Source: a bacterium (GTDB taxonomy: Bacteria > Patescibacteriota > Dojkabacteria > JAKAPS01 > JAJZLI01). Taken from it: a stretch of DNA of 64,000 nucleotides. The position numbers and the translations under genes are program-made. The notes beneath the pieces were generated by a model, which ran no database searches, was not told where the DNA came from, and worked only from the letters and a program-made list of their open reading frames with translations. Positions 11,832 through 63,805 of the stretch are shown piece after piece (the stretch's first letter is position 1; the number at the start of each line of letters is the position of its first letter). The stretch is from NCBI GenBank assembly GCA_021816845.1, contig JAKAWT010000002.1, forward strand, positions 213,329-277,328, read 5' to 3'.

Positions 11832-11858
11832 GGATTAGAATCCAAGGATCTTGATCCA
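11832..11858. repeat. GGATC-palindrome tandem repeat copy (GGATTAGAATCC aa GGATCTTGATCC)
   Basis: Member of the dispersed GGATCYRGATCC family; lies at the 5' boundary of the ABC-F ORF. Confidence 0.6.
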
Positions 11859-11919
11859 ACCTTGTGATTTTAACATATTTATAGAAGATAATTGTATTTT
11901 AATATATAATTGTGGAATT

Positions 11920-12870
11920 ATGACAAATTTTTGGTTGAGTCTTAAAAAACCTTTTTTCGTCCTTGCTCCAATGGATGATGTAACAGATATTGTGTTTCGT
12001 GATGTTGTAGAGAAAGTATATCCTCCTGATGTTTTTTTTACTGAATTTGTATCTATAGAGGGTCTAGCTTCTAAAGGTCGAGAAAATGTTATAAGGAAGC
12101 TTAAAAGAAATATTAAAAGCAACAAACCTCTAGTTGCTCAAATATGGGGTAGAAATTTAGATGATTATATTAAAGCTACTAAAGATATTAGAAAGATGGG
12201 ATTTGATGGTATTGATATAAATATGGGATGCCCTGAACGAGGTATTGTAAGACGTGGTTATTGCGGAGGATTAATAGGACAATATTCTGAAGTTGAATCT
12301 ATCATTAAAGCAGCAAAAAAAGGTGCAGGTACTATTCCAGTTAGTGTTAAAACTAGAATAGGTATAGATCATGCTATTACCAATGATTGGTTCAGTTTTC
12401 TCCTAAAACAAGATCTTGCTGCTATAACAGTTCATGCTCGTACTGTAAAAGAGATGAGCAAGGTTGAAGCTCACTACGATGAAATTAAAAAAGTAGTGAA
12501 ACTTCGTGATGAATTATCCAAAAATACTTTGATCATTGGTAATGGGGATATTACAAGTTATAAGAAAGGTCTAGATCTAGTAAAAGAAACTGGAGTTGAT
12601 GGTGTGATGATAGGAAGAGGGATTTTTAAAGATATATTTATATTTGATCCTAAGAAGAAAGAACATACACTAAAAGAGATGATAGATATACTCACTTATC
12701 ATCTAGATAAATATGAAGATAATACAGATTATAAATCTTTTCAAATACTTAAAAAATTTTTTAAGATATATGTTAATAATTTTGATGGAGCTAATGATTT
12801 ACGTATTGAATTAATGCAAACAAATTCTGTAAGGGAAGTGAAGAATATTTTAGTAAATAGAGATTTTTAA
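11920..12870 (+). CDS. tRNA-dihydrouridine synthase (Dus family)
   Basis: FVLAPMDDVTD, GFDGIDINMGCP (FMN/TIM-barrel Dus motifs); start chosen at the ATG at 11920 inside ORF 11851..12870. Confidence 0.8.
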   Translation: MTNFWLSLKKPFFVLAPMDDVTDIVFRDVVEKVYPPDVFFTEFVSIEGLASKGRENVIRKLKRNIKSNKPLVAQIWGRNLDDYIKATKDIRKMGFDGIDINMGCPERGIVRRGYCGGLIGQYSEVESIIKAAKKGAGTIPVSVKTRIGIDHAITNDWFSFLLKQDLAAITVHARTVKEMSKVEAHYDEIKKVVKLRDELSKNTLIIGNGDITSYKKGLDLVKETGVDGVMIGRGIFKDIFIFDPKKKEHTLKEMIDILTYHLDKYEDNTDYKSFQILKKFFKIYVNNFDGANDLRIELMQTNSVREVKNILVNRDF

Positions 12871-13467
12871 ATGAATGATATTAAAATAACTATTAATGTT
12901 TATAATAACAGAGCCAAAGAACTTTCAGATTACTATGATACATATGATAGAAGTGGAGACATAAAAAGAGTCTTTTCATATATTAAAAAACCTAACCCTA
13001 GAGTTTTAGAGATTGGATGTGGAGGAGGTAGAGATGCAGTAGAAATATTAAAATATACAAAAGATTATATTGGAATGGATATATCATCAAATATGTTAGA
13101 TTTAGCTAAATCTAGACTACCTAATGCTGTATTTGAACTTGGAGATATAAACACTTACAATCTACCTTTAAATATAGATATTATTTATTCATCAGCATCA
13201 CTACTGCATTCCAATAAGAATGTAGTTAAAAACGTATTAAAACGTTGTCATCGTGTACTTAATATTGATGGTATTGTATATATATCTTTAAAATATGGTA
13301 CTTATAAAAAAATAATAAAGAAAGATAGGTTTGGAGAAAGACTATTTTATTTGTATACCCCAGAGGATATTAAAAAATTAGCATTGAGTATGTATCAGGC
13401 TATTTATGAAGATACACAAACCATAGAACACACAAAATGGTTCACACTCGTACTTAGAAAGGTATAA
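12871..13467 (+). CDS. class I SAM-dependent methyltransferase
   Basis: Motif I VLEIGCGGGRD, motif II-like region, 198 aa. Confidence 0.7.
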   Translation: MNDIKITINVYNNRAKELSDYYDTYDRSGDIKRVFSYIKKPNPRVLEIGCGGGRDAVEILKYTKDYIGMDISSNMLDLAKSRLPNAVFELGDINTYNLPLNIDIIYSSASLLHSNKNVVKNVLKRCHRVLNIDGIVYISLKYGTYKKIIKKDRFGERLFYLYTPEDIKKLALSMYQAIYEDTQTIEHTKWFTLVLRKV

Positions 13468-13572
13468 AATAATATTTTAAAAATCCTTATATTTAACTTC
13501 TCTGTATGAATAAATATAACAAACAACTCACATCGCTTTGAAACGAGTGAGCTGTTTATTTAAAAGTACTGA

Positions 13573-14115
13573 TTACTGAGCAAAAACTGATCCGTAACCA
13601 TTTGGAGTTGCCAATGTACATAATTGGTGTCCACCTCCATTTATACTTGTAGTACAGTAATCATAACTATCATTTCCTTGATCCATAATTACCTCATAAT
13701 TACCCCAAATAGAGTAACCACCTTGTAACCAATATGGACTAGAAGATGCTGCTGAACCTACCCATATAATTTTATAATGCCATACTCCACCAGAACCATT
13801 AGGTACATTACCATTAAATTCATTGTCTACCCAGGCTCCTAAACAATAAGTAGGATTATTATATCCATTAGCATTACAATTATCCCATTGAGCATTCCAT
13901 TTCATAACAAGCTGATCATTAGGATTACCGTCACAATTTGAAGGAGCATTCATTGATGCACAAAAACTAGCATTAGTACCGTTAAAAATTCTAGCTCCAT
14001 AATTATATCCATATTGATTGAATCCCTTTGTTCCTGCTGCAAATGTGAAAACAGCTCCTAAACTCAACATTAAAGCTCCTACGGCTCCCCCTATTAAAAA
14101 TTTTTTAATATTCAT
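13573..14115 (-). CDS. secreted cysteine-rich hypothetical protein
   Basis: Signal peptide/TM at the N-terminus; 8 Cys; Gly/Asn/Trp/Tyr-rich mature part (lectin- or bacteriocin-like composition). Confidence 0.45.
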   Translation of the reverse strand: MNIKKFLIGGAVGALMLSLGAVFTFAAGTKGFNQYGYNYGARIFNGTNASFCASMNAPSNCDGNPNDQLVMKWNAQWDNCNANGYNNPTYCLGAWVDNEFNGNVPNGSGGVWHYKIIWVGSAASSSPYWLQGGYSIWGNYEVIMDQGNDSYDYCTTSINGGGHQLCTLATPNGYGSVFAQ

Positions 14116-14403
14116 AATTATTCACCTCCTAAATGTACACCAATATGTTATTCCTATAGGACTACAATGTCAATAATTTATATATTCCATTATTATGATA
14201 ATATATTGAATACTACATTTGTTATTAATAATCCTATTGGGTGATTAGAAGTATATGTTGGTTTAAATTTTTATACTTTTTTCACTACTATACTACATAA
14301 TACACATTTGAAACTTAGGGTATCAATTCTAATTTATATTGGGAACTAGTTTGAGCCTATATGTAGATAACTTCTGATATTTTAGACAATGTGTTGACCT
14401 TTA

Positions 14404-14961
14404 TTACATCAAATCTTCCATCCACTTATCACTAGTTATAACATTTGCTTGTCTTGGAAATATTTTATTAATAAGTACTGAGTGAACTTCTGGGTCACTA
14501 TCAAAACAAAGATCTGAAAGTATAGTGATTGTAAAATCCTTATCTGCAGCTTCTCTTGTAGTTGAGAGTACTACTCCACTTGTAGATATTCCTGAGAGTA
14601 TAATATTTTCAAAACCACCTGCTCTAAGAATCATATCTAAATCACTTCCACTGAAAGCACTAATTCTATGTTTAGTAACTAATATATCATTATCTTTAAT
14701 ATCTATTATAGGAGTAACACCAACCATTGAACTTGAAGCCCTTTCTTTCATAGCACTAAATGATTTATTAGAAGAGCTAATTTCTGGAGCTCCTTTACGG
14801 AAACTAACCACAACATAGATTACTTGGATATTATTTTTATGAGCAAAATCAACGGTAGCATTAACTTTTTTCAAAAATTCATCCTTATTATCTAGATTAT
14901 CAACTATTCCAGGTTGTATATCCATCACAAGTAATGCAGTTTTTTCCGATTTATTATTCAT
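14404..14961 (-). CDS. isochorismatase-family cysteine hydrolase
   Basis: ALLVMDIQ...., VIYVV, ILSGISTSGVVLSTTREA pattern with catalytic Cys (DLC). Confidence 0.7.
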   Translation of the reverse strand: MNNKSEKTALLVMDIQPGIVDNLDNKDEFLKKVNATVDFAHKNNIQVIYVVVSFRKGAPEISSSNKSFSAMKERASSSMVGVTPIIDIKDNDILVTKHRISAFSGSDLDMILRAGGFENIILSGISTSGVVLSTTREAADKDFTITILSDLCFDSDPEVHSVLINKIFPRQANVITSDKWMEDLM

Positions 14962-15479
14962 GATTTCATTATAGCATATGCTACTGATCAGGGTAAATTA
15001 TTGAATTGAAATATCATAGGTTGATTAAAATTGAACCTAATTGAAGGAAACATTCTTAATTAAAACCAATTTCTTAAATAAATAGAGAAAAATAATATTT
15101 AATAAATAAGAATATATACACTCAAAAATTAGAATCACACTACCTCATCAAATGAAATTTATCATACTAGGATGTTAATATATTATTTATTTTCCTTTTT
15201 TTTAAGAGTACAATTCAATTAAGAAATAATATTGAAATTATGAGTAAAAATCTAATAAACATAATTTATATTGTTGCTATGATATCTACGATAGTTATTG
15301 TAGATATACTTTTCTTTAGGAATCAATTCTGGCCACGATTAATGTCGAATATTGGAATTATTCTTATATACACAGCTTTCTATCTAGTATTTTTTATAAA
15401 TCGCTAAAAAGTATATAAATGCACACATCTCCATGAGTATCGTAGGCGACGTTAAAACCTTTTCATATATATTCAGATA

Positions 15480-16208
15480 CTAACGTTTTTTGAAATTATT
15501 ATAGATATAGTTTTTAATTAATTTTTCTAAATCCATTATTTCATTATTTTTTAGGCATTTTTTTAAATCATCTAAAAAATCCTTATCATATCTCTTAATA
15601 TAGTAATCATGTTGAAATTTGTGATTATATAAAAATTTGTATCTTTTATCTTCATGTGAGAAAGGAATTTCTTCTCCATATATTTTACAATACATTGGAA
15701 GAATATTCCAATATATTATACTTATATACATACCTTTATAGTTAGGATTATCTTGGTAATATTTTTTCATAAGATTCATTTTTTTATATAGATACTTATA
15801 TTCTATCTCCTTAATCTCTCTTTTTACAAAATTTTCTTGTATATGCACACTACTTTTATCTTTCAAATCTTTAATAATATTTTTATTATCTTTAACTATT
15901 TCTCCTATATAGAACATTCTTGATGTCACTTTAGTATTACAATTATAATCTTTAGCAAATCGATCCTGAACACCTTTAGTAGTAGATATAAATAAATCTA
16001 TATTCAATTTTCGATTTTTAATATGAGTAAAAAAATTATATTTGTGATTATCTGTAATAATTATAATATCTATATCTGATCCTTTCGTATTTAATCCCAA
16101 AACATAGCTACCAGTAATAATATATCCAATCAATGGAAATATTTCATACTCAGATCCATTATTATTAATAAAATTTTCAATTTTTTTATAGGGAATATTC
16201 TTTTTCAA
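15480..16208 (-). CDS. Pol-beta-superfamily nucleotidyltransferase (KNTase/Lnu-like) with C-terminal helical domain
   Basis: GSYVLGLNTKGSDIDIIIIT = G[GS]-x9-13-DhD signature; 242 aa; extremely Lys/Asn/Ile/Tyr-rich. Confidence 0.55.
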   Translation of the reverse strand: MKKNIPYKKIENFINNNGSEYEIFPLIGYIITGSYVLGLNTKGSDIDIIIITDNHKYNFFTHIKNRKLNIDLFISTTKGVQDRFAKDYNCNTKVTSRMFYIGEIVKDNKNIIKDLKDKSSVHIQENFVKREIKEIEYKYLYKKMNLMKKYYQDNPNYKGMYISIIYWNILPMYCKIYGEEIPFSHEDKRYKFLYNHKFQHDYYIKRYDKDFLDDLKKCLKNNEIMDLEKLIKNYIYNNFKKR

Positions 16209-16214
16209 TATAAA

Positions 16215-17339: not shown

Positions 17340-17365
17340 AACATATATAAAAATATTCCCTAGAT

Positions 17366-19177: not shown

Positions 19178-19350
19178 TTAATTAATTACCAAAATAATTA
19201 TCTTAGATTCTACTCCTTACTTTTAAAAAAACAATATGAGTATATAAAAGATATATTGTATATAAATAAATTAAAACGATATTTTTATACTATAAAATTC
19301 AAATTATCCTAATTGTATTTTGCTGAATTAGTCTTCCTCATATACTATAA

Positions 19351-22104: not shown

Positions 22105-22112
22105 TCTTAATT

Positions 22113-22919: not shown

Positions 22920-23359
22920 AATTAAAAGTATATTTATACTTCATCATTATAAACTTTTTGCTTTCTGAAAGGAATTGTTTATATTAATTAAATCATCATA
23001 TATCTTACTAGAGCTTAAATAGTGTTTTATTTTCAAAGATTTTATCAATTGTATATTTAATACAATTATCTTGTCAAATTCCCATCTATAATACCAATTT
23101 TTTTCAGAATAAACTTATGGGGACTGTGGACGATATTCGAACCCTTATTTCAAATAATTTAATTCTTAATATATTTACATAAATTATCTCTTCTTCTAGT
23201 GTAACGAGAACTAAGTCTCTATGAAGAAGAAGTAATTTATTTTTAATAATAAAAAATGAATATATCTAATTATGGTATAATATTTATATAATAATAAATA
23301 TAAATGAATTAAAATAAAAATTCAGGATTAAACTCTTCAGAAGATTATAATGGAAATTT

Positions 23360-23435
23360 AGTATTTATGAAGATACGAGCACCAAAGGACATACAAAATG
23401 GTGTGCACTTGTGCTTAGAAAGTTATAAAATAACA
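23360..23435 (+). pseudogene. remnant copy of the 3' end of the SAM-methyltransferase gene (12871..13467)
   Basis: tttatgaagatac...caaaatggt.cac..gt.cttagaaag.tataaaataa aligns with 13404..13478 at about 75% identity, including the stop codon. Confidence 0.45.
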
Positions 23436-23460
23436 TTATAATATTTATTAGAATAATAGA

Positions 23461-23770: not shown

Positions 23771-23845
23771 TTAAATTACACTTTATCCCTTATTAATAAA
23801 AATAATTATATTGATATTGTATGACTTTTGTATTAATATGAATTT

Positions 23846-28392: not shown

Positions 28393-28413
28393 AGTAATAA
28401 AAATAATAAAGCA

Positions 28414-30875: not shown

Positions 30876-32834
30876 AAAATAAAAATTGCTACTACAATAG
30901 TTATTTTGACTATTTCCGTTTTAACATTTTTTCACAGTGTTGACCATGTATATGCTCAAACCTTAGGCACTGGTACCTCAGGTACTGGTACCTCTCCATT
31001 TAGTGTTGATTATAACATTTTATACAACATATCAAAAGATGGTACTGCAACAGTATCATATGATATCAAACTTGTAAACCTAACCCCTACTACCTATGCA
31101 TCATCTTATTCAATTGCCCTAACATCAACTGATGCTTCTTCAATATCCGTAGTCTCATCTTCAGGATCTAATCTCCCCTTTACTGTAACTAAGGGAGCAA
31201 CATCAACTTCAATTTTAACTAAATTCCCGAATTCAGTATATGGTTATGGTACATATCAGGAATGGACTATTAATTTTACAACTAACCAGATATCTAAGAT
31301 GCAGGGAGATTTGATGAATATTATGATTCCTGGATTTCAGCAAAAGAGTCTTATATCTCAGGTTACAACAACTGTAGAAGTTCCATCATCTCTAGGTCCA
31401 ATTAATTTTGCATCTCCTCAATTCCCTCAGATTGCTACAAATGGAAGTAATACAACATATACATATAACTCAAGTCAATCTTATTCTCAAAGAGGTATAT
31501 TGTTAATACTTGGTAGTTATCAAATTTATAAATTTAAATTTCATTACAAATTACAGAATCCTAATTTTTTTTCAAAAGAATCATATAAGATAGTTGTACC
31601 TGCAGACTACAAAACACAGTCAGTGATATTCTCAAAGATATATCCACAACCCACAAAGACATACATAGATTCTGATGGTAATTATATAGTGGAATATGTA
31701 TTATCTCCAAGGGCAAGTTTTACAACCACAATTGAAGGAGAAGCTAAAGTTTTTTCTACATATAATAATTTTAAGAATGCTTTACCCCAAAAACAATATT
31801 TATCTAAAAGTGACATAAAGATATATACTGCTAGTCAGCCTTACTGGCAAACTACAAACACATATATAAAGAATCTAGCTAAGAGCATTATAAAGGGTGA
31901 TACAACAACATTACAAAAGGCTCAATCTATAGAAAATTATGTAGCAGGAAAACTTGTATATAATCAAAAAGCAATCTTTGACCCTCAAAGAAAAAGATTG
32001 GGTGCAATAGTTGCTCTAGAAGAGCCTAATAACGCAATATGCCAAGAATATGTAGATGTTTTTGTAACACTTGCAAGAGCAGATGGAATACCCGCTCGTA
32101 TGATAGCAGGATATGGGGATCCTCCTGATATTAATGTAAATCCTTTGCCTCCAGATATTTTGCATGCCTGGGTACAATTTTACACACCATCTTTTGGTTG
32201 GGTAACTGCTGATCCAACATGGCAATCTACATCAGGTGGATTTAACTTTTTTGGTAATATTGGATCTAATCATCTAATCCTTGCAAGATATGGGCATAGC
32301 TCTGTAAATCCTCCTCTCATATTATCATTTGTAAGGGAGAAAAATCCTCAAAACAACATTAATATAGAAGCAGTTAATGCTCCATTTGTAGTTCATCCAA
32401 ATTTCAGCCTTACAGTATTGAATGATAATAGTCTAGTTTCAGGATTTGAAAATATACTAGAAATTAATATAAAAAATACTGGAAATCAAGTTTTACGTGG
32501 ACATGATATCACAGTGTCATCTAACCAAGGTGTAACAATAGGAAAAATTAATATTTCCAGTAATGCTATTTTTCCAGGATCTTCAGAGGTCATAAAGATA
32601 CCTATAAAAACAAATGATTATTTCTCAAGTGGAACAAAAGAAATCAATATAGATGCAACATTCTATACATACCACAAAAAAGCTGTAAATGAAAAGATCA
32701 ATAGTCTTCTAACATTTAATCCTTTGTTTGTATCAGGAATAGTACCTTGGATTCTAATTATTATCATATTCATACTCTCTATAATATTTGTAGACCTACT
32801 TTTTAGGTTTAAAAACACTAAAAGCAAGAGTTAA
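30870..32834 (+). CDS. transglutaminase-like cysteine protease-fold protein, secreted with C-terminal TM anchor
   Basis: Signal peptide; core CQEYVDVFVTLARADGIPARMIAGY ... HAWVQFYTPSFGWVTADPT (Cys-His-Asp transglutaminase triad context); C-terminal hydrophobic helix. Confidence 0.65.
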   Translation: MQKIKIATTIVILTISVLTFFHSVDHVYAQTLGTGTSGTGTSPFSVDYNILYNISKDGTATVSYDIKLVNLTPTTYASSYSIALTSTDASSISVVSSSGSNLPFTVTKGATSTSILTKFPNSVYGYGTYQEWTINFTTNQISKMQGDLMNIMIPGFQQKSLISQVTTTVEVPSSLGPINFASPQFPQIATNGSNTTYTYNSSQSYSQRGILLILGSYQIYKFKFHYKLQNPNFFSKESYKIVVPADYKTQSVIFSKIYPQPTKTYIDSDGNYIVEYVLSPRASFTTTIEGEAKVFSTYNNFKNALPQKQYLSKSDIKIYTASQPYWQTTNTYIKNLAKSIIKGDTTTLQKAQSIENYVAGKLVYNQKAIFDPQRKRLGAIVALEEPNNAICQEYVDVFVTLARADGIPARMIAGYGDPPDINVNPLPPDILHAWVQFYTPSFGWVTADPTWQSTSGGFNFFGNIGSNHLILARYGHSSVNPPLILSFVREKNPQNNINIEAVNAPFVVHPNFSLTVLNDNSLVSGFENILEINIKNTGNQVLRGHDITVSSNQGVTIGKINISSNAIFPGSSEVIKIPIKTNDYFSSGTKEINIDATFYTYHKKAVNEKINSLLTFNPLFVSGIVPWILIIIIFILSIIFVDLLFRFKNTKSKS

Positions 32835-37282: not shown

Positions 37283-38265
37283 TGCATGAATATAGAATTT
37301 CAAATAAGGAAGAGATAGAAGAATTACAGAAAGAATTTAAATCCAATTTTCTCCAGACTACATATTGGGCTGAATTTAAAAATTGGGATACTCACTACCT
37401 AGTTTTTGAAGACAATTCTAAAGTATATGGATATTGTGTTTTATTAATAGAGAAAAAATACTTTTTTAAATTAGCATATGTGCCACGAGGACCAATTTTA
37501 AATGATTATTCAAAGATTCTAGATTCTAAGTTTAAAAGTGCTATATCAAGTATTGAGGATTTTGCAAAAACACAACACGTGTCACTTTTAAAAATAGAAC
37601 CAGACCACTCTGATATTAACCATCAAGATGGCAACCATCCAGATGGCAACATCAACTACTCTGATATATTCAAAGGGTATATCAAGGTTAATGATTTCAT
37701 ACAACCAGTACAAACTGCTGTATTAGATGTAGGAGATAGAGATTTTATGATAAAAAATATATCTTCAAAATATAGAGGAAGAATAAGGAATAAATTTAAT
37801 TTAGAATTAAAAACTATTGATGATATAGACAAATTTTTTAAAGTTTATTCAGACACAGCAAATATAAAACACTTTAAACAAAGAAATATAGAATATTTTA
37901 AGAATATGAAATTTTATTTTAAAGATCATATAAAAATCTTTGGGGTCTATTACAATAATATCCTAATAGCAGCATCTTTTAATATATTATGGCAAGATAC
38001 ATTGACTTATCTTTATTCTGGATCAGATAAAAAGTATAACAACATGTATCCAGGATATTTTCTTGTTTTTGAGTCATCATTATCTATGAAAAATAATGGT
38101 ATAAAAATTACAGACTTATGGGGAGTTAGCGATGATAATACTAAATGGCAAGGATTTTCAGAATTCAAGAAAAATATCGGAGGTAGAGTTATTGATTTCC
38201 CAGGAAGTTTTGATTTACCATTAAACAAATTATATTATTCTATATATAAATTGATCAAAAGGTAG
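37282..38265 (+). CDS. FemAB-family peptidoglycan bridge-forming aminoacyltransferase
   Basis: FLQTTYWAEFK, YVPRGP, LTYLYSGS, MYPGYFLVFES, DLWGVSDD...W.GFS.FK motifs; paralogous to the convergent neighbour. Confidence 0.7.
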   Translation: MHEYRISNKEEIEELQKEFKSNFLQTTYWAEFKNWDTHYLVFEDNSKVYGYCVLLIEKKYFFKLAYVPRGPILNDYSKILDSKFKSAISSIEDFAKTQHVSLLKIEPDHSDINHQDGNHPDGNINYSDIFKGYIKVNDFIQPVQTAVLDVGDRDFMIKNISSKYRGRIRNKFNLELKTIDDIDKFFKVYSDTANIKHFKQRNIEYFKNMKFYFKDHIKIFGVYYNNILIAASFNILWQDTLTYLYSGSDKKYNNMYPGYFLVFESSLSMKNNGIKITDLWGVSDDNTKWQGFSEFKKNIGGRVIDFPGSFDLPLNKLYYSIYKLIKR

Positions 38266-41866: not shown

Positions 41867-41907
41867 GGATCTAGATCCTCGGATCTAAATCCTAGGATCC
41901 AGATCCT
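41867..41907. repeat. GGATC-palindrome tandem repeat (GGATCTAGATCC tc GGATCTAAATCC ta GGATCCAGATCC)
   Basis: Three 14-bp units in the lepB-PBP intergenic region. Confidence 0.7.
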
Positions 41908-44183: not shown

Positions 44184-44738
44184 CTAAATAGAAATGCCAT
44201 CCTTGGGCCTAGACTCATTAGGTTTAGATCCCCTGGACCTAGACCCCCTGGATTTAGATCCTGTATATTCTAACTTCAACCTTAAATCATTCACAAACCA
44301 TTTTTTTCCATTAGCCACTTTTTTAAAAAGACTACTATAGAGATTTTTATTAGGAATTAATAATACTTTAAGTTTAGATCTAGTATCTAGATAGTCTACC
44401 AGACAATAAAAATCTCCATCCCCTGTAACTATTATTGCTTGATCATAGTTAGCTATTTCAATCATCGTTTGTAAAACTAGTTCTGCATCACAGTTTCCTT
44501 TAACTGTACCTTGTCTTGTGAGTGTAGGTTTGAAAATAATGATATAACCCATTTTCTGCAAAGCAGTATACATAGATTGATTTTCATCAATAAAACCAAT
44601 AAATAAAAAACATTTAGTAGCTGAATATTTGTTTTCTAAATATTTTTTGAATTTCTCAAAATCTAATATCCATCCCTGATCTCTCACGGCTAAATTTAAA
44701 TTTTGACTATCTATAAATGCGTAATTGTTATTTTCCAT
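44184..44738 (-). CDS. NYN-domain (LabA/PIN-like) protein with repeat-encoded Ser/Arg/Lys-rich C-terminal tail
   Basis: NYAFIDSQNL, CFLFIGF, AIIVTGDGDFYCLVDYL: the NYN/LabA pattern; C-terminal GSKSRGSRSRGSKPNE is encoded by a GGATC-repeat locus. Confidence 0.65.
   Translation of the reverse strand: MENNNYAFIDSQNLNLAVRDQGWILDFEKFKKYLENKYSATKCFLFIGFIDENQSMYTALQKMGYIIIFKPTLTRQGTVKGNCDAELVLQTMIEIANYDQAIIVTGDGDFYCLVDYLDTRSKLKVLLIPNKNLYSSLFKKVANGKKWFVNDLRLKLEYTGSKSRGSRSRGSKPNESRPKDGISI
44200..44263. repeat. GGATC-palindrome tandem repeat, degenerate (GGCCTAGACTC.. GGTTTAGATCC cct GGACCTAGACCC cct GGATTTAGATCC)
   Basis: 15-bp periodic units encoding the NYN protein C-terminal tail. Confidence 0.65.
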
Positions 44739-49943: not shown

Positions 49944-50849
49944 ATGAAGATGAGAAATACTATCCTTATAGTCATACTGATTGTTCTTATAGCAATTTTG
50001 GTATATTCTTTGTATTCTGCTTTTTTCTACAAAAATCACCAACTTCAAAACATATCTACCATATCCAAAAATCTAACAAGCTGTAATAATGGATCTAGAT
50101 CCAATGGATCAAGATCCATTGATTGGATGATAACTTATCAGAATATTAAAAATTTATCTAAAATAAATAAAACTATTGTAAATAGTATTTTTGACTCTCA
50201 AAATACTTATATAATGGAGTCACCATTAAAGTTTCAATATAATCCTTATGGAACATTTGTTGCCGTTTTTCAAAGTTATCAAACATTTAAAACAGACTTA
50301 TTAAATCATACTATTAATCCTCACTTTAAGTGGGTTTTATATGATAATGAACATTGGTCAAAAACTCCAGTTGTCGAGCAACAGAATCCAGTTTTATATG
50401 AGGAACTATTCACTAATCTTGCACATCAATATGGATACAAAGTAATTTTATCTCCCTCTCAAGATTTGTTTATAGAATCAAAAAATAATTTCAATGGGAA
50501 TTTATATCTAAATTCTGGTATTGTTAAATCAACTTATAATTATGCTGATATATATGAAGTACAAGCTCAATCATTCGAACAGTCAAGATATAGAAGTAAT
50601 AATGTATTTACAACTTTTGTAGATAATGTTCTTAAACAGATACCAAATCATACGAAACCTATCATTGTAGGACTTGGTACAAGTAGAGTTCAGAATTCCA
50701 CTCAACTCTACAATGATTTTTTAAGCGTTATGGGATCTGTACAAGGATTTTGGTTGAACATTCCAGGATCAACAGCCAAGAGACTTAATATAGGGATACA
50801 ATTCTTACAAATGGTTGGATCCAGATCCTTTGAGAATTCGTGTAAATAA
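49944..50849 (+). CDS. membrane-anchored extracytoplasmic hypothetical protein with in-frame GSRSNGSRS repeat insertion
   Basis: N-terminal TM; the GGATC-repeat locus at 50091-50120 is translated in-frame as NGSRSNGSRS; a second repeat copy lies at the 3' end (MVGSRSFE). Confidence 0.45.
   Translation: MKMRNTILIVILIVLIAILVYSLYSAFFYKNHQLQNISTISKNLTSCNNGSRSNGSRSIDWMITYQNIKNLSKINKTIVNSIFDSQNTYIMESPLKFQYNPYGTFVAVFQSYQTFKTDLLNHTINPHFKWVLYDNEHWSKTPVVEQQNPVLYEELFTNLAHQYGYKVILSPSQDLFIESKNNFNGNLYLNSGIVKSTYNYADIYEVQAQSFEQSRYRSNNVFTTFVDNVLKQIPNHTKPIIVGLGTSRVQNSTQLYNDFLSVMGSVQGFWLNIPGSTAKRLNIGIQFLQMVGSRSFENSCK
50091..50120. repeat. GGATC-palindrome tandem repeat (GGATCTAGATCC aat GGATCAAGATCC)
   Basis: Two 15-bp units, in-frame inside CDS 49944..50849; an extra single unit GGATCCAGATCC lies at 50817..50828. 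Confidence 0.7.
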
Positions 50850-53798: not shown

Positions 53799-53843
53799 TG
53801 GATCCGGATCCTTGAATCCAGATTATTAGATCTAGATCTTTGG
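53799..53843. repeat. GGATC-palindrome tandem repeat (GGATCCGGATCC tt GAATCCAGATTATTAGATCTAGATCTTTGG)
   Basis: Intergenic, between tRNA-Glu and the AI-2E transporter gene. Confidence 0.6.
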
Positions 53844-57439: not shown

Positions 57440-57473
57440 ATATATATGATATATCTTTTTTAAAATTTCATCA

Positions 57474-57527
57474 AGGATTAAAATCCAAAGATCTTGATCC
57501 GGGGATCTTGATCCGGGGATCTAGGTA
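57474..57527. repeat. GGATC-palindrome tandem repeat (GGATTAAAATCC aaa GATCTTGATCC ggg GATCTTGATCC ggg GATCTAGG)
   Basis: 14-bp period, intergenic between the secreted-protein gene and the surface-protein gene. Confidence 0.65.
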
Positions 57528-57552
57528 GAAAACAACTTATATAATAATTCAA

Positions 57553-57585
57553 AAAAAGGAGGCGAACCTCCTTTTTCTTTATTAA
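57553..57585 (-). terminator. bidirectional rho-independent terminator (AAAAAGGAGG-cgaa-CCTCCTTTTT)
   Basis: GC-rich 5-bp stem flanked by an A-run and a T-run, immediately 3' of the 858-aa surface protein gene. Confidence 0.6.
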
Positions 57586-57593
57586 TAATGTAA

Positions 57594-60170
57594 TTAGAGC
57601 ATCATCAATCCAACTCCTATTGCTATTATCAATCCTCCTACTGCAGCAAACATTTCTATTGGTGATGTTCCTGCTGTTTGTGGAAGTTGCTGTACTGTTG
57701 GAGTTACAACTGCTGGAACACAATCTCCTGATACTGATGATGTTGTCATCACATTTGTCTTTGCTCCTCCAGCATTTACTAACCATCCAGATACTTGGTA
57801 ACTATCTTTACCATTAGATCCTTGCCATATATATGCACCTAGGTTAGCATCTGTATTTGGTATTGTTGCTACCTCTGTTCCTGTTGTAGTATCTAATATT
57901 ATTCCTGTAAACATCTCTCCACTTGGTACATTAGTTGCTTTCCAATTTATCAACAAATCATTTGTAGTATTGTTCTGACATGCTAATGATATAGATGTCA
58001 TTGCCGGACTTACAGGTGCCTGACATGATGTTACATTCTCACTTGATGATGTAACAACGCTACTTTTACCATTAGTACCCTCTATGTACCCGGATACTGT
58101 GTAGTTATCAGTTGTGTTTGCTCCTGTCCATGTGTAAGTACCTAATGATGCTGGTACATTAAAGGTTGCTACTTGTGTATTTGTTGTTGTATCTTCTATT
58201 GTCCCATAAAATGTATCACCACTTACTAAGCTTGAAGCTGTATCTTGCCATTGTATAGCCATATTAACTGATGATTGTACACATGCTAGTGACACAGATA
58301 TAATTACTGGAGGATGTTGTACACAGTTATAAAAACTTACAGCACTCGATGTAGCAGTATTTCCACCCTGTACACTCATTGTTGCAGAATAGTTATCATT
58401 GCTATTTTCTAATGACTGTACAAATGAATTGTATACTCCTGTAGATGTATTTTGTGTTGGTATTGACAATGCCTCTGTACCTGTAGTCATGTTCGTAATA
58501 TATCCTGTTATCGCATCTTGTGAGACGTAGTTTGTTGTACTCCATGATACTCCTTGACAATTTAGTGAAACTGTTATTACAGGTGGTTGTGTATGTGTCA
58601 CACAGTTATAAAAATTAAATTCACTTGATGTGGAACTATTGCCTCCTGCAACTGACATAGTTACAGTATAATTATCATGACTATTAGTTAGAGCTGATAC
58701 AAATGAATTCACTGTTCCTGTAGATACATTCTCTGTTGGAATTGTAGCTACTTTCTGATTTGTTGTTGTATCTTCTACATATCCTGTTATTGCATCTTGT
58801 GAGACGTAGTTTGTTGTTGTCCATGATGCCCCCTGACAATCCAGAGTCACAGCTATTGTTGGAGCTTTTGTATGTGTTACACAGTTATAGAAATTAAATG
58901 ATCCAGATGTTGCACTATTTCCATTCTGTACTGACATCATAACTTCATAATTATCACTACTATTTGTCAGAGATGATACAAATGAGTTGACTGTACCAGA
59001 TGCTGAAGTTTCTGTTGGGAATGTATAAACATTCTGACCTGTAGTCATATCCTCTACATATCCTGTTATTGCATCTGTGGATACGTAGTTTGTTGTACTC
59101 CATGTTGCCCCCTCACAATTTAGTGTTACTGATATTGTAGGTGGTTGTGTATGTGTCACACAGTTATAAAAATTAAACTGTGGAGAATAGTTGCTTCCAA
59201 TAGGACCACTAGGTGAATATATATTCATTAAAAAGTCATATGTGTCATTTGTTTGTGTAGCTCCAGATACGAATGAATTTACTGTACCAGATGCTGTAGC
59301 TTGTGTAGGAACTGTTAATATAGTTTTACCAGTTGTCACATCAGTAACATAACCTGCAACTGTGTCTCCAGATTGAAAATTAGTTGTTGTCCATGATGCT
59401 CCTTGACAATTCAGCGAAACTTTTATTGTAGGTGTAACTGGTGCTGGAGGTGTTACTGTTATAGTCTCCGTTACTAGCTCACCATTCTGTACCTGAACTG
59501 TTACATTATTACCGCTTACAGACCACCCAGATGGTAATCCAGATAAGGCATAACTTACAGGTGAAAAATTACAATCAATTATCTCATAATATTTAATATC
59601 ACTTTCACTAACAGTTCCAGATGAAACATTATTAGTTCTTGTAATATTACCGTGTAGTGAGCTACATAAACCAAATCCAGTTGATGGACATGAAAATACT
59701 GTCCCACTACCCTGGGTTTGACCTACACTTACTGTTGGCATAACTTGATATGTTGTTGGTGGTGTATCATTGTGGTTCTTGTAATAACCCATTATGTCTG
59801 CAGGTCCTATGTATGAACCAGGATTAATCTGTGGAGATTGTACTAATGGATCTTGTAATGCACCATTATAACCAGAATCCCATACAAACCCATTATCATA
59901 ACCATCTGTACATTGAGCTGTATGCATAGATAGATTCAAATTTGGTAACGCTACTTGCGAGCTAGATGTCTTAATATCAATTTGTATTGATGCATTGTGT
60001 GTAGCAGAATATGTAGTCAAATTACTTGGTAATTGACAATTAGGTGCAGCACTAACTACTACTGGCTTACCTAAATTACCCATAGCTAAAAATGCTATAA
60101 AAGATATATTTAACAGTATAAATACAGATATAACTAAATGTATTTTCTTGAAATGTAACTTATTAAACAT
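57594..60170 (-). CDS. LPxTG-type sortase-anchored surface protein with about 5 tandem Ig-like repeats of roughly 97 aa
   Basis: Signal peptide; repeats NFYNCVTHTQPP.I.V.L.C.G.SW.TTNYVS.DAITGY......; C-terminal LPQTAG plus hydrophobic helix plus short tail = sorting signal. Confidence 0.7.
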   Translation of the reverse strand: MFNKLHFKKIHLVISVFILLNISFIAFLAMGNLGKPVVVSAAPNCQLPSNLTTYSATHNASIQIDIKTSSSQVALPNLNLSMHTAQCTDGYDNGFVWDSGYNGALQDPLVQSPQINPGSYIGPADIMGYYKNHNDTPPTTYQVMPTVSVGQTQGSGTVFSCPSTGFGLCSSLHGNITRTNNVSSGTVSESDIKYYEIIDCNFSPVSYALSGLPSGWSVSGNNVTVQVQNGELVTETITVTPPAPVTPTIKVSLNCQGASWTTTNFQSGDTVAGYVTDVTTGKTILTVPTQATASGTVNSFVSGATQTNDTYDFLMNIYSPSGPIGSNYSPQFNFYNCVTHTQPPTISVTLNCEGATWSTTNYVSTDAITGYVEDMTTGQNVYTFPTETSASGTVNSFVSSLTNSSDNYEVMMSVQNGNSATSGSFNFYNCVTHTKAPTIAVTLDCQGASWTTTNYVSQDAITGYVEDTTTNQKVATIPTENVSTGTVNSFVSALTNSHDNYTVTMSVAGGNSSTSSEFNFYNCVTHTQPPVITVSLNCQGVSWSTTNYVSQDAITGYITNMTTGTEALSIPTQNTSTGVYNSFVQSLENSNDNYSATMSVQGGNTATSSAVSFYNCVQHPPVIISVSLACVQSSVNMAIQWQDTASSLVSGDTFYGTIEDTTTNTQVATFNVPASLGTYTWTGANTTDNYTVSGYIEGTNGKSSVVTSSSENVTSCQAPVSPAMTSISLACQNNTTNDLLINWKATNVPSGEMFTGIILDTTTGTEVATIPNTDANLGAYIWQGSNGKDSYQVSGWLVNAGGAKTNVMTTSSVSGDCVPAVVTPTVQQLPQTAGTSPIEMFAAVGGLIIAIGVGLMML
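58000..59500 (-). repeat. about 290-bp tandem DNA repeats inside the surface-protein gene
   Basis: Near-identical blocks, e.g. ggtggttgtgtatgtgtcacacagttataaaaattaaa around 58575, 58870 and 59140. Confidence 0.7.
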
Positions 60171-60870: not shown

Positions 60871-60912
60871 CCCAAAAGAATCTACATTCAAAGTGTCTAG
60901 ACAAAAGAAATT

Positions 60913-62397
60913 ATGCTTGACCATTTTATAAAAAAAGGGAAAAAATACGGATATCTTAAAGACAATCATTGGCTAGAAAGCTCAAGTGGTGAGGTGATGC
61001 TATCAATATCCCCTATTAATAATGAGATAGTAGGTTATATGCAAAAAATGACAACAAGTGAAGTAGATGAAACTATCAAGTCATCAAAATTAGCATTCTC
61101 AAGTTGGAAAAATCAACCAATGAACATAAGAGTTCAAATATTAAAGAAAGCATCTAGAATTATATTTGATAACACAGCTCTAATAACAGCTTTGATTATT
61201 AAGGAAATTGCAAAACCATATAATGAGGCACTAGATGAAGTAATAAGGACTGCAGATTTAATATCATTTTATGCGGATGAGGGTTCTAGAATGATTGGAG
61301 AGGTTCTAACTTCAGATCTTTTTCCTAGATACACGAAATCAAAAACAGCAATTGTAGAAAGAGTACCTTTAGGTGTCATTTTATCTATACCTCCGTTTAA
61401 CTACCCTTTTAATGAATCTGCCCCTAAAATAGTTGGTGCGATAATATCTGGAAATACAGTTGTATTAAAACCACCATCTCAAGGGGGAATTACAGCATTA
61501 CTTCTTGGTGAAATATTTAAACTTGCAGGGTTACCTGATGGAGTTTTAAATATAATAACAGGGGATAGCTCGGTAATTGGAGATTTTGCAGTATCACATA
61601 CTGATATAGCAGGGATAAATTTTACAGGTAGTACTAAAACTGCTTTGCATATACAAAAAACCTTAGAAAAAGGAAATAGACTATTACCATTATTACTTAT
61701 GGGACTAGGAGGAAAAGATGCAGCTATTGTACTTGAAGATTCAGATATAAAAAATGCTGCATTAAATATAGCAGATGGAGCATTCACATATTCGGGTCAA
61801 AGATGTACTGCAATAAAAAGAGTATTGTTACAAGATACTATTGCAGATTTATTTTTAAGAGAATTAAAAAATATAGTTTTAAAAAAGTATATATTAGGTA
61901 ATCCCAATGACAAAAGTATAAATATGGGTCCTGTGATTAATGACAAACAGGCAGAGTATATTGAATCTCTTGTTAATGATGCAATCTCGAAAAAAGCTGT
62001 AGTTATATGTGGAGGACAAAGAAGTGGCAGATATATAGAAGCAACTATCCTCGATCATGTCAGCCTTGATTCAAAGCTTGCCTGGGAAGAGCCTTTTGGT
62101 CCAGTACTACCTATAATAAGAGTAAAAAATGTTACAGATGCAATAGATATAGCTAATAAATCAGAATATGGACTACAGAGTAGTGTCTTTACAAGTAATA
62201 TTGATACTGCGTTTGAAGTAGCAGAAAAATTAGAAGTTGGGGTTGTACAAATAAATGGTAAAGATTCAAGAGGTCCAGACAATTTTCCTTTCAACGGTGT
62301 TAAAAATTCCGGATATGGTAATATACAAGGTGCAAAGTATTTAATAGAATCTCTAACGAAACTAAAAACAACTGTAGTAAATAAAATTAATGTTTGA
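60913..62397 (+). CDS. aldehyde dehydrogenase family protein (GapN-like candidate)
   Basis: ALDH motifs: catalytic FTYSGQRCTA, EEPFGPV, glycine-rich GSTKTA; 494 aa. Confidence 0.75.
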   Translation: MLDHFIKKGKKYGYLKDNHWLESSSGEVMLSISPINNEIVGYMQKMTTSEVDETIKSSKLAFSSWKNQPMNIRVQILKKASRIIFDNTALITALIIKEIAKPYNEALDEVIRTADLISFYADEGSRMIGEVLTSDLFPRYTKSKTAIVERVPLGVILSIPPFNYPFNESAPKIVGAIISGNTVVLKPPSQGGITALLLGEIFKLAGLPDGVLNIITGDSSVIGDFAVSHTDIAGINFTGSTKTALHIQKTLEKGNRLLPLLLMGLGGKDAAIVLEDSDIKNAALNIADGAFTYSGQRCTAIKRVLLQDTIADLFLRELKNIVLKKYILGNPNDKSINMGPVINDKQAEYIESLVNDAISKKAVVICGGQRSGRYIEATILDHVSLDSKLAWEEPFGPVLPIIRVKNVTDAIDIANKSEYGLQSSVFTSNIDTAFEVAEKLEVGVVQINGKDSRGPDNFPFNGVKNSGYGNIQGAKYLIESLTKLKTTVVNKINV

Positions 62398-63805
62398 AAA
62401 TTCTATCCCTATAGATCTCAAAAGTAAATTATTCTTAAAAGCAATCCCCTATTCTTGTGGTTGTTATATTTTCACTGGATTTGGATCCAAGGGATCTGGA
62501 TCCAAGGGATCTGGATCCAAAGATAAAGTCTTATACATAGGAAAAGCCAAGAATTTAAGAAAAAGAGTAAGTCAGTATTTCAATATAGGAAATTTACCGA
62601 TAAAAACTCAAAAAATGCTTTCTCTGTCTAAATCTATAACATATATAGAAACAGACAACGAAGCCGAAGCTTTAATATTAGAGAGTAACCTAATAAAAAA
62701 ATATAGACCTAAATATAATATTCTTTTAAAAGATGATAAACAGTATGCCTGGGTAAAAATAACAAATGATGAATTTCCAAAGATTGAGAGAGTTAGAGAA
62801 AAAAAGAATGATAAGGCAACCTATTTTGGACCATATCCAAACGCCTACACTACAATCAAAGTTTTATCAAATCTAAGAAAGATTTTCCCATATAGAACAT
62901 GTAATCTAAAAATTCATGAAAGATCTTCTAGAGATGGAGAAATAACAAAACCCTTGGTACTAGTACCCAGGGTATGTATTTATTATCATATAGGACTTTG
63001 TACTGGACCTTGTGATAACTTACAGTCCAGAGAAGATTATATGAAGAATATAAATAACATAAAGAAGTTTTTTAAAAGTAAGAAACATCAAATTATAAAA
63101 GATTATGAAAAAGAAATGATAAAAGCATCAAAAGAAGAAAGATTTGAAGATGCAATAAAGCTAAGAGACAAGATAGAAGATATTAGGTATGTTACACAGA
63201 ACATAAAAGTAAATTTTGAAGATCCAGATGATCCAGAGAATAGAACATATACAAATAGAAAAAAAGAGAACATAGAAGCTTTAAAAAAGCTATTTTTAAA
63301 ACTCCATATTAAATATAACAATGGAAGGGTAGAATGCTACGATATATCTAATATACAAGGAAAATATCCTGTATCATCAATGGTTGTTTTCAAAGATGGA
63401 GAGATGTCAAAATCTAACTATAGAAAATTCAAAATTAAATCGGATGATACACCAAATGACCCGTTAATGATGTATGAAACACTAACTAGAAGACTCAAAG
63501 AGTCTAGAATCACTAATAAACCTAAAGATGTAAGTTTTAGTGAGGTTCCAGACTTAATTGTTGTAGATGGGGGTAAAACTCAAGTTAGTGCAGGAGCTAG
63601 AGCTTTAGAAGATTTAGGATTAACTATTCCACTTATTGGACTTGCAAAAAGATATGAAGAAATTTACCTACCTAATATAAAAGAGCCTATACGGTTAAAA
63701 CAAAATGACAAATCTTTATTGGTATTAAGACAAATTAGAGATGAAGCACATAGGTTCGCAATAACATTTCACAGACAAATACGATCGAAAGGAATGTATT
63801 CCTAA
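62390..63805 (+). CDS. uvrC: excinuclease ABC subunit C-like protein lacking the C-terminal HhH domain
   Basis: N-terminal GIY-YIG (CGCYIF...LYIGKAKNLRKRVSQYF, E...LE..LIKKYRPKYN), UVR motif (RFEDAIKLRDKIEDIRYV), RNase H-like endonuclease domain (GRVECYDISN, VVDGGKTQV, IGLAKRYEEIY, RDEAHRFAI); ends at 471 aa without the HhH tail; a repeat-encoded GSKGSGSKGSGSK insertion sits in the GIY-YIG loop. Confidence 0.7.
   Translation: MFENSIPIDLKSKLFLKAIPYSCGCYIFTGFGSKGSGSKGSGSKDKVLYIGKAKNLRKRVSQYFNIGNLPIKTQKMLSLSKSITYIETDNEAEALILESNLIKKYRPKYNILLKDDKQYAWVKITNDEFPKIERVREKKNDKATYFGPYPNAYTTIKVLSNLRKIFPYRTCNLKIHERSSRDGEITKPLVLVPRVCIYYHIGLCTGPCDNLQSREDYMKNINNIKKFFKSKKHQIIKDYEKEMIKASKEERFEDAIKLRDKIEDIRYVTQNIKVNFEDPDDPENRTYTNRKKENIEALKKLFLKLHIKYNNGRVECYDISNIQGKYPVSSMVVFKDGEMSKSNYRKFKIKSDDTPNDPLMMYETLTRRLKESRITNKPKDVSFSEVPDLIVVDGGKTQVSAGARALEDLGLTIPLIGLAKRYEEIYLPNIKEPIRLKQNDKSLLVLRQIRDEAHRFAITFHRQIRSKGMYS
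62478..62519. repeat. GGATC-palindrome tandem repeat (GGATTTGGATCC aag GGATCTGGATCC aag GGATCTGGATCC)
   Basis: Three 15-bp units translated in-frame within the uvrC-like gene. Confidence 0.7.

Follow-up and report, generated by a model that had tools for sequence, protein, structure and literature searches.

The 64,000-nucleotide stretch of Dojkabacteria DNA analysed here (contig JAKAWT010000002.1 of assembly GCA_021816845.1, hereafter the window) contains 12-bp palindromes that recur in short tandem arrays between genes as well as inside genes of conserved enzymes, which raises the question of what process places them there and keeps them palindromic. We consider it fairly probable that the arrays constitute a lineage-specific family of palindromic minisatellites acting at the DNA level, whose units are born as inverted copies, amplified by slippage, homogenised by template switching and filtered by selection. 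The conserved and defining property of the family is its dyad symmetry and not the GGATC sequence.

Repeat arrays in the window

The window has a GC content of about 30% and carries ordinary bacterial housekeeping genes; its UvrC groups with proteins of Patescibacteria/Dojkabacteria. The same sequence is contained in the metagenome-assembled genome (MAG) GCA_027425355.1, in another MAG at NCBI and in two assemblies from Logan. The exact core GGATCYRGATCC matched seven times in the window and never in 100 dinucleotide-preserving shuffles, while 20 matches of GGATYYRRATCC with at most one mismatch were obtained against 1.64 expected. Three of these 20 (28425, 39458 and 53618) represent tRNA T-arms unrelated to the family. 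With a locus defined as at least two adjacent units (two or fewer mismatches to GGATCNNGATCC) or one perfect unit, eight loci with tandem GGATCNNGATCC units were counted, compared with 0.07 in shuffles, which favours a repeat family over a motif at base-composition frequency. These are the same eight loci that had been listed in a preliminary description of the window, and each of them holds tandem or single 12-bp palindromic units. Together with further, partly degenerate loci the following arrays were recognised:

4290..4315, degenerate two-unit array of period 14 (GGATCTAGATAA TC ATATCTAGATAC) between the ABC ATPase and MacB-like genes
11832..11857, two-unit array of period 14 in the intergenic region between the divergent ABC-F and Dus genes
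30966..30992, plus strand, two-unit array of period 15 with a variant stem (GGCACTGGTACC TCA GGTACTGGTACC), encoding GTGTSGTGTS
37620..37646, plus strand, two-unit array (2.6 copies according to Tandem Repeats Finder, TRF) of period 15 with the stem CCATC..GATGG, in the gene of a FemAB-like protein
41867..41906, intergenic three-unit array of period 14, with the PBP1A stop 41 nt before and the signal-peptidase ATG 30 nt after it
44205..44261, minus strand, partly decayed four-unit array of period 15, encoding the GSKSR/GSRSR tail of an NYN-domain protein
50091..50117, plus strand, two-unit array of period 15, encoding NGSRSNGSRS just past the N-terminal hydrophobic anchor of a 301-aa open reading frame (ORF)
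50817..50828, plus strand, single perfect unit GGATCCAGATCC (GSRS) in the same 301-aa ORF, six codons before the stop
53800..53839, three-unit array of period 14 upstream of the AI-2E transporter gene
57475..57528, three- to four-unit array of period 14, flanked by a terminator hairpin (57551-57578) on one side and by the ATG of a 188-aa ORF on the other
60878..60904, possible decayed two-unit array of period 15 (GAATCTACATTC AAA GTGTCTAGACAA), of uncertain membership, upstream of the aldehyde dehydrogenase gene
62477..62518, plus strand, three-unit array of period 15, encoding GFGSKGSGSKGSGS in UvrC

The array periods of 14 or 15 bp agree with the spacers of 2-3 nt reported previously. The copy number of two to three given in the preliminary description applies to most loci, but the array at 44205 has four units, that at 57475 three to four and that at 50817 one; likewise, the array placed at 44200 is a member of the family, but spans 44205-44261 with four units. 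Of two suspected partial copies, the one near 4289 turned out to be a degenerate two-unit member with 14-bp period and the one near 63228 a 9-bp direct repeat that does not belong to the family. The arrays at 30966 (GGTAC type) and 37620 (CCATC type) have other palindromic stems and were absent from the earlier list.

The first unit of the 4290 array provides the TAA stop of the ABC ATPase ORF, the 30966 array sits near the N-terminus of a transglutaminase-like protein and the 37620 array encodes HQDGNHPDGN in the second reading frame. The tail encoded by the 44205-44261 array, which is the Ser/Arg-rich NYN tail noticed before, falls outside the NYN Pfam domain (residues 8-139), and the peptide NGSRSNGSRS assigned to the protein at 49944..50849 is indeed encoded by the 50091 array. 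The proposed ABC-F N-terminus MDQDPWILIL could not be maintained, as the array precedes the conserved ATG by about 27 nt and is read in another frame in the sister species. In the related genome “bacterium isolate clean1586” the orthologue of this 11832 array (L063 1641-1666) consists of two perfect GGATCTGGATCC units.

GATC occurs 168 times in the window compared with about 176 calculated from base composition, and GGATCC outside arrays five times in 64 kb compared with about four. The excess thus resides in tandem arrays and not in restriction sites as such, and a role for the restriction-site content of the cores, to which attention had been drawn, is unsupported.

Unit architecture and reading frame

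A census with TRF, which is blind to palindromy, covered 145 kb comprising the window species, its extension L001, the sister species L068 and the relative clean1586, and yielded 53 arrays of period 13-16 with a sharp peak at 14 and 15. The consensus is a perfect 5+2+5 palindrome in 26 of the 53 arrays and has one mismatch in 18 more; the chance expectation of a perfect palindrome among random 14/15-mers is 2.3%. The dyad-symmetric unit of 12 bp (5 + 2 + 5 nt), most commonly GGATC-YR-GATCC, is joined to its neighbours by 2-3-nt spacers. Besides the predominant GGATC, the stems GCATC, GTATC, GAATC, GGGTC, GGGCC, GAGCC, GAACC, GTTAC, GGTAC and CCATC were found, and the clade contains at least nine different perfect stems.

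The coding status of 41 arrays was assigned by an ORF-span heuristic, and both settings named in the preliminary description, intergenic and within coding sequences, were encountered (18 non-coding arrays and 23 classed as coding). Period 15 was observed in 22 of the 23 coding arrays, the lone exception being an ABC-F upstream array (L063 1639) that we judged to be misclassified. The non-coding arrays comprised 13 with a period of 13-14 bp and five with 15 bp (Fisher p = 5.7e-6 for period against coding status among the 41 arrays). Within ORFs the in-frame period of 15 bp is accordingly the only one accepted, whereas the native 14-bp period prevails between genes.

In almost all coding arrays of the GGATC type the codons are GGA-TCN-NGA-TCC, so that GS[RGK]S and one unconstrained residue are encoded, and some read as DxDP or IxI instead, in line with the earlier proposal of translation in more than one frame. 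Variant stems are translated to YHDTL, HPDAW or NQGS. The codons of the GGATC-type arrays do not vary synonymously, being always GGA TCY ... TCC in a genome of 30% GC. Since the same core is read in several frames and variant stems give unrelated peptides, the constraint acts on the DNA. Judging from the translations, the protein would take whatever the palindrome encodes as long as the frame is kept, and this keeping of the frame argues for translation of the arrays rather than bypass.

Insertions into conserved proteins

The coding arrays of UvrC, two Mur ligases, EPSP synthase and a 283-aa protein are missing from the orthologues of three outgroups. In UvrC the array reads YIF-TGFGSKGSGSKGSGSK-DKVLYIGKA and represents a net insertion of 12 aa between β-strands 1 and 2 of the GIY-YIG domain, where homologues have a turn of 5-6 residues; the linker suspected in this loop is therefore confirmed as the product of a three-unit array. 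The insert was not detected in any homologue compared, including one with 83% identity, and solved GIY-YIG domains align to the window UvrC only from the residue following it. In the AlphaFold model of UvrC residues 34-43 (predicted local distance difference test score below 50) correspond to the loop between strands 24-30 and 46-53. The lengths of the five proteins in outgroups, sister species and window species are as follows:

UvrC: outgroups 441-442 aa, L068 455 aa, window species 471 aa
Mur ligase: outgroups 459 aa, L068 487 aa, window species 572 aa
second Mur ligase: outgroups 412-415 aa, L068 448 aa, window species 432 aa
258-aa protein (the above 283-aa protein): outgroups 257-259 aa, L068 278 aa, window species 283 aa
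EPSP synthase: outgroups 430-431 aa, L068 493 aa, window species 469 aa

Over the five syntenic proteins the gain in length relative to the outgroups amounts to 8-11%, and the positions of the inserts differ between the window species and L068. The coding arrays hence add disordered loop residues to otherwise conserved proteins. Convergent linkers encoded by unrelated DNA, which had been considered as an alternative, were not encountered in relatives: the outgroup orthologues are without linkers altogether, so that the repeat family stands.

To the right of the window (L001 15830-16010) the first-named Mur ligase of the window species carries a C-terminal extension of about 65 aa past L068 and about 85 aa past the outgroups. 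The extension is Cys-rich (…CSVC…C..WC…C…), follows an array unit and is absent in the sister species and the outgroups. It may represent a gene fusion made when an array removed the stop codon.

Distribution among genomes

One genome each for 185,579 species was scanned with two perfect tandem units as the query. Multiple loci were found in a single one of them, clean1586 (nine loci), which shares 84-87% identity with the window where both overlap. The remaining matches were singletons, mostly in GC-rich taxa, and represented GS or DP coding repeats or one conserved alphaproteobacterial 26-mer. This 26-mer, GGATCTTGATCCA(C/G)GGATCGCGATCC or its reverse complement, lies in long open frames of Alphaproteobacteria (L024, L033, L036, L044, L060; L039, L045, L064). 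The respective 14-bp matches were rejected as arrays, since they belong to this one conserved 26-mer of an orthologous gene.

The three syntenic outgroup genomes (GCA_027425255.1, GCA_027424915.1 and GCA_027425295.1) have the same gene order and a UvrC that is 54-59% identical to that of the window. No family array was detected in them, palindromic 12-mers occurred at about chance level, and TRF reported five arrays of period 13-16 in 64 kb of the three outgroups, one of them an AT-only palindrome. Carriers of arrays are therefore only the window species and two close relatives (L068 and clean1586), represented by GCA_027425355.1, the JGI bins Ga0495008/Ga0604561 and clean1586 DAHXLB01, and the lack of arrays in the syntenic outgroups indicates a recent phenomenon limited to a narrow clade. 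A scan of viral contigs gave one unrelated match of 69% GC and no array-rich contig, so that a phage vector is not indicated. Assemblies made independently of each other, namely two MAGs at NCBI, two Logan runs and two JGI samples, carry identical arrays.

Turnover of arrays and maintenance of symmetry

Comparisons between sister species (75-89% nucleotide identity) revealed that the arrays of UvrC and of the 283-aa protein as well as three L068-specific arrays are present in one species and absent in the other. At shared loci the unit numbers were 1 vs 3.5, 1 vs 4 and 2 vs 3, and in L068 one unit only is found at the site of the 57475 array. Other orthologous arrays have kept position and length, their sequences being heavily diverged. 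Between two strains of the window species (L001 vs L002/L003) EPSP synthase differs by a 30-nt, i.e. two-unit, indel (2 vs 4 units). The same strain pair shows a 15-nt indel plus 5/12 changes in one unit, which is degenerate in one strain and the canonical GGATCTAGATCC in the other. The polarity of this replacement is ambiguous because L002 has recombined a divergent tract, and the case is suggestive only. The tract is visible at 16983-21416, where L001 and L002, after being identical for 16.98 kb, diverge by 1-3%, resembling a homologous recombination tract from a diverged strain. Arrays are thus gained, lost and resized on the time-scale of species and strain divergence. The preliminary description had assumed a lineage-specific, expanding mini-repeat family at the DNA level and had proposed to compare related genomes for presence and copy number; the carriers are indeed confined to a narrow clade, and both features vary between species and strains.

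Orthologous arrays change far more rapidly than the DNA flanking them, yet the individual units retain their dyad symmetry through compensatory changes. The array upstream of the AI-2E transporter gene has equal length in the window and L068 and near-identical flanks, while 15 of 36 unit positions differ. At 4 of 15 symmetric position pairs both sides were altered and are still complementary, e.g. GAATCCAGATTA vs GAGCCCAGGCTC, and random placement of an equal number of changes matched this symmetry in 0.17% of simulations (P = 0.0017). The perfect units of this array are not the same ones in the two species, so that ongoing stochastic re-symmetrisation fits better than purifying selection on fixed sites. 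Among the explanations considered, one half-unit templating the other accounts best for the symmetry data.

Folding and genomic context

Young homogeneous arrays fold into long and strong hairpins (z = -3 to -7), and the 41867 array can be folded into a single long hairpin (RNA z = -6.6), but diverged arrays fold no better than shuffles. The hairpin potential, which the preliminary description had suggested testing, is thus borne out for young arrays and not for diverged ones, and a conserved long hairpin was rejected as its common feature. Intergenic arrays are located 10-40 nt upstream of start codons, and divergent, co-directional and convergent settings were all observed. In promoter and terminator scans the match counts equalled the shuffle expectation, with one array flagged as terminator-like, and no regulatory inference is possible from such numbers. 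The Rfam scan of the window returned tRNAs only and none at arrays. The outgroups keep the same genes without arrays, and the freedom of the stem sequence is hard to reconcile with sequence-specific protein binding. The arrays are probably without a function of their own, and we regard them as selfish or neutral, produced by a mutational process and filtered by selection; at single loci a regulatory side-effect may occur.

Origin of new arrays and rival explanations

In the favoured scenario of a DNA-level minisatellite family, replication or the repair of a break would be the occasion on which a short native sequence is copied inverted beside itself, through snap-back synthesis or a strand switch; alternatively, a unit already present in the vicinity or at another place would serve as a microhomology template. 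The self-complementary unit would then promote replication slippage leading to tandem copies, and template switching within the unit, i.e. quasi-palindrome correction, would keep the units symmetric and homogeneous. Selection would act as a filter only, allowing in genes the in-frame, stop-free and hydrophilic readings in surface loops. Template switching is reported to create and maintain perfect hairpin stems and to mimic compensatory evolution (PMC8794818, PMC7202029, PMC8604942). A local seed is recognisable for the array at position 16327 of L068 (GTATCGTGATAC x3): it begins at a native GTATC, which supplies the codons for Asp-Thr in the conserved motif DTGLHTTTP and is found at the empty site in L001 as well. 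Furthermore, both species have kept a single GCATC unit, and at a distance of 30 nt from it L001 has a new GCATC array.

Several observations weigh against this scenario. The units of the UvrC array are of the canonical form GGATCTGGATCC-AAG and not derivable from the ancestral AAAGATAAAGAC, and the identical 12-mers GGATCTGGATCC and GGATCTAGATCC recur at at least 15 unrelated loci in three species, so that purely local birth is insufficient; either some inter-locus copying or a factor with sequence specificity is required. N-ATC is common to the majority of stems, a bias that may point to sequence specificity. With five base pairs around a 2-nt centre, a single unit is unable to form a stable hairpin; considering also that diverged arrays fold like shuffles, slippage in old arrays has a weak physical basis. 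The statistic on compensatory changes is based on one unambiguously aligned orthologous array, and the change in replication or repair that would have triggered the process in this clade is postulated.

The main alternative is an ultra-small non-autonomous mobile element, in which an enzyme specific to the clade and acting in trans would recognise the 12-bp palindrome with its spacer and copy it to further sites. Such an enzyme could be a HUH/RAYT-like transposase (RAYT, REP-associated tyrosine transposase; REP, repetitive extragenic palindrome) acting on hairpins or a site-specific nickase or restriction enzyme together with a strand-displacing polymerase, and arrays would grow through repeated insertion beside existing units. 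We hold this to be possible, though clearly less probable than the minisatellite scenario. It would account for the identical canonical units at many unrelated loci of three species, for the UvrC array that appears imported and not locally derived, for the abrupt and clade-limited onset and for spacers that do not vary inside an array and in many cases recur on its two flanks (AA-E-AA-E-AA in L063); the replacement of a degenerate unit by the canonical GGATCTAGATCC within one species (5/12 changes) would be of the same kind, although its ambiguous polarity makes it suggestive only. Six comparisons of filled and empty sites, however, revealed no consistent target-site duplication, and a Pfam scan of about 50 window ORFs gave no transposase, RAYT or AlwI-type nuclease (RE_AlwI) domain. 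The stems GTATC, GAACC, GGTAC and CCATC fit no single recognition site, at least one array was seeded natively, and the viral scan disclosed no array-rich contig. The transposition of REP or MITE type (MITE, miniature inverted-repeat transposable element) that had been envisaged earlier is accordingly not upheld: the units measure 12 bp, are not extragenic, show no consistent target duplication at the six sites and are accompanied by no transposase in the window. A more specific version regards the arrays as the in-vivo footprint of an undescribed amplification, in which a clade-specific nickase/restriction-type enzyme (for GGATC or N-ATC) with a strand-displacing polymerase, or a hairpin-acting enzyme, nicks, displaces and snap-back-copies the 12-bp palindrome. 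Nt.AlwI recognises GGATC. In vitro, nickases including Nt.AlwI generate short repeated palindromes with the nickase site in the presence of Bst polymerase (PMC10520511). We consider this version rather unlikely. The only genes of the window resembling restriction-modification (R-M) genes lie in an 11.5-kb block that is absent from the array-bearing clean1586, and the N6/N4 methylase genes (19351-22919) were rejected as the cause of the arrays for this reason.

A role as cis-regulatory or structural sites, i.e. cooperative operators for a dimeric DNA-binding protein or RNA hairpins in 5'-untranslated regions or at 3'-ends, with the copy number serving as a contingency switch, seems quite unlikely. 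Tandem palindromic boxes are a familiar operator architecture (MetJ met boxes, omega heptads), the intergenic arrays precede start codons by 10-40 nt, in sister species several have been retained at orthologous sites, and the young ones form strong hairpins (z = -3 to -7). Nevertheless, the unit sequence is not conserved at the orthologous AI-2E site, where 15 of 36 positions and the stems differ between near-identical flanks, the spacing varies (13, 14 or 15 bp), the same units make up 22 ORF-internal arrays, and all gene orientations are represented. Diverged arrays that fold like shuffles, promoter and terminator matches at chance, the lack of an Rfam match and the array-free outgroups with the same genes point in the same direction. 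Selection at the protein level for flexible Gly/Ser or Asp/Pro linkers, with palindromy arising incidentally because GGA (Gly) and TCC (Ser) are reverse complements of each other, would agree with the GS[RGK]S plus one variable residue encoded by most GGATC-type arrays and with the GS or DP coding repeats in GC-rich genomes outside the clade. It is very unlikely in view of the invariant synonymous codons (GGA TCY ... TCC) despite 30% GC, the use of other frames (DQDPG, IQIQ), the unrelated peptides of variant stems (YHDTL, HPDAW, NQGS), the identical units in non-coding DNA at the frame-breaking period of 14 bp and the outgroup orthologues without a linker at these positions. Finally, every source is a MAG or a metagenome contig, which would leave room for an assembly or sequencing artefact, but the arrays measure at most 60 bp and are thus below read length, reading frames stay open through them, and their identity in the independent NCBI, Logan and JGI assemblies excludes an assembly artefact, so that we regard this explanation as negligible.

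The 11.5-kb block (12874-24359) is without palindromic arrays, and in clean1586 the contig L063 joins position 12874 directly to 24359. It encodes a 917-aa protein with an N6_Mtase domain (19351-22104, minus strand), an adjoining 268-aa N6_N4_Mtase (22113-22919, minus strand), an RCC1-like repeat protein, a DnaJ-domain protein and an isochorismatase, and probably represents a genomic island that includes an R-M-like module.

Comparison with known repeat families

The family fits a dispersed minisatellite or variable number tandem repeat (VNTR) family. Its units are arranged head-to-tail within the range of 10-100 bp (TRF periods of 14-15 bp, 2-4 copies per locus), the copy number is polymorphic (2 vs 4 units within the species; 1 vs 3.5, 1 vs 4 and 2 vs 3 between sisters), and GGATCTGGATCC or GGATCTAGATCC is dispersed over at least 15 loci in three species. 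Mycobacterial interspersed repetitive units are dispersed minisatellites as well, with units of 46-101 bp and lengths held to multiples of three where translated. In contrast to them, the units described here measure 14-15 bp and are each palindromic, their stems diversify yet remain symmetric, and many arrays lie within genes of essential enzymes in one small clade of the candidate phyla radiation (CPR) only. GC-rich palindromic clusters are known from AT-rich fungal mitochondrial genomes and low-complexity loop insertions from Plasmodium proteins. The arrays resemble the former as relatively GC-rich palindromic mini-elements spreading in a small AT-rich genome including its genes, and the latter as non-globular loops by which a mutational process inflates housekeeping proteins. 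Hosts, unit sizes and sequences differ, however, and the mitochondrial elements have no 14/15-bp tandem architecture, while the Plasmodium inserts are not palindromic.

In their effect on proteins the arrays are similar to Rickettsia palindromic elements (RPEs) and in-frame MITEs such as those of Coxiella (PMC5896051), palindromic and selfish-looking in-frame inserts in conserved genes that are tolerated as extra surface peptide. In-frame insertion was likewise found here in UvrC, the two Mur ligases, EPSP synthase and the 283-aa protein. Whereas those elements spread as discrete entities, measure 100-150 bp or more and occur as a single copy per site, the inserts in the present family are multiples of 15 bp with heterogeneous stems and not conserved elements of 100-150 bp. 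Compared with MITEs of about 50-500 bp with terminal inverted repeats related to an insertion sequence, the 12-bp unit is small, no insertion sequence was found in the window, and neither a terminal-repeat anatomy nor a consistent target duplication was seen. REPs and bacterial interspersed mosaic elements (BIMEs; PMC3733652) share with the arrays short palindromic repeats that are clustered with short linkers, lineage-specific and variable in copy number. REPs are extragenic, imperfect palindromes of 20-40 bp that bear GTAG or CGTC as a tag on one side, and they are mobilised by RAYT. The units of the present family, in contrast, are 12 bp long and tag-free, start with G[GCTA]ATC, are separated by AA/TT-type spacers, and half of the arrays are intragenic (22 period-15 arrays inside ORFs); an IS200/IS605-like RAYT transposase was not among the approximately 50 window ORFs scanned with Pfam.

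The mutational signature is that of quasi-palindrome template switching, for which PMC8794818, PMC7202029 and PMC8604942 describe multi-nucleotide changes that perfect inverted repeats, also in coding sequence. It is known as a sporadic process, whereas here it would act genome-wide, coupled to tandem amplification and yielding a recognisable family. HIP1 of cyanobacteria (PMC5861425) is a GATC-containing palindrome highly enriched in one lineage in genic and intergenic positions with no known function, and to this extent comparable. It is a single 8-mer scattered over the genome, while in the window isolated GGATCC and GATC are not in excess and only the arrays are. The ‘ab initio’ synthesis by a nickase or restriction enzyme with a polymerase (PMC10520511) also produces short repeated palindromes with an enzyme site, and the commonest unit here equals two inverted GGATC, but it is a test-tube reaction and many of the stems are without GGATC. 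Palindromic amphipathic repeat coding elements (PARCEL; PMC2996958) share the dyad-symmetric DNA and consist of a 25-residue amphipathic repeat (75 bp) in ORFs of unknown function, in contrast to the non-amphipathic unit of five residues that lies in housekeeping enzymes and also in non-coding DNA. Operator arrays are not matched either, given 15 of 36 differing positions at an orthologous site and the occurrence in all intergenic contexts and in ORFs.

The family thus fails the defining features of REP/BIME, MITE, RPE, HIP1, PARCEL and operator arrays; it is RPE/in-frame-MITE-like in its protein effect and corresponds to quasi-palindrome template switching in its mutational signature. Our literature search yielded no description of it in Patescibacteria or elsewhere.

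Its interest lies in the density of arrays, the invasion of essential genes in a streamlined genome, the sharp phylogenetic onset and the maintenance of symmetry free of function. The genomes of CPR/Patescibacteria are considered streamlined, whereas in this clade housekeeping proteins and intergenic DNA have been lengthened by one recognisable mutational process. Filled and empty sites in sister species and strains, with none in the outgroups, provide a natural experiment on the birth, amplification and symmetry of palindromes and on the tolerance of essential enzymes to insertions. The apparent “compensatory evolution” arising without structural selection is a caveat for covariation-based prediction of RNAs and operators. 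If the process were enzyme-driven, the arrays would form a new, extremely small class of mobile DNA, and if the nickase/polymerase version were true, they would be the smallest known self-propagating DNA element, invading essential genes in a genome-reduced symbiont lineage and making the examined proteins about 10% longer. Independent of the mechanism, the arrays could be used as VNTR markers for strain typing of this uncultured lineage.

Further observations in the window

The terminator hairpin next to the 57475 array (57551-57578; GGAGGCGAACCTCC) is strong, intrinsic and bidirectional with A/T runs on both sides, and separates the array from an 858-aa ORF. Directly after the array a promoter-like TTGATG-17-TATCAT (57446-57474, minus strand) was noticed, with 6 nt separating the end of its -10 element from the ATG of the 188-aa ORF, a distance suggesting a putative leaderless or very short-leader mRNA.

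The PPDK gene contains a repeat of 12-bp period (34632-34677), whose first unit is the perfect palindrome GGTTCCAGAACC and is followed without spacers by imperfect copies (VPEPVPEQ...), and a repeat of 15-bp period (PEVAPQEVSPQE) at 33998-34030. Both may be relatives of the family, the former with a different period, although this assignment is uncertain.

The 64-kb window encodes 12 tRNAs in total, including a cluster of six (Gln, Gly, Phe, Val, Leu, Leu) on the minus strand at 28413-29030. Long in-frame tandem repeats were found in two large minus-strand ORFs with no clear Pfam family, namely 279 bp x2.5 at 58474-59177 in the ORF 57594-60170 and 132 bp x4.3 at 17421-17988 in the ORF 17366-19177. 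Orthologues of the 858-aa protein range from 670 to 858 aa, with 670 vs 856 aa in two samples of one species (L068/L069).

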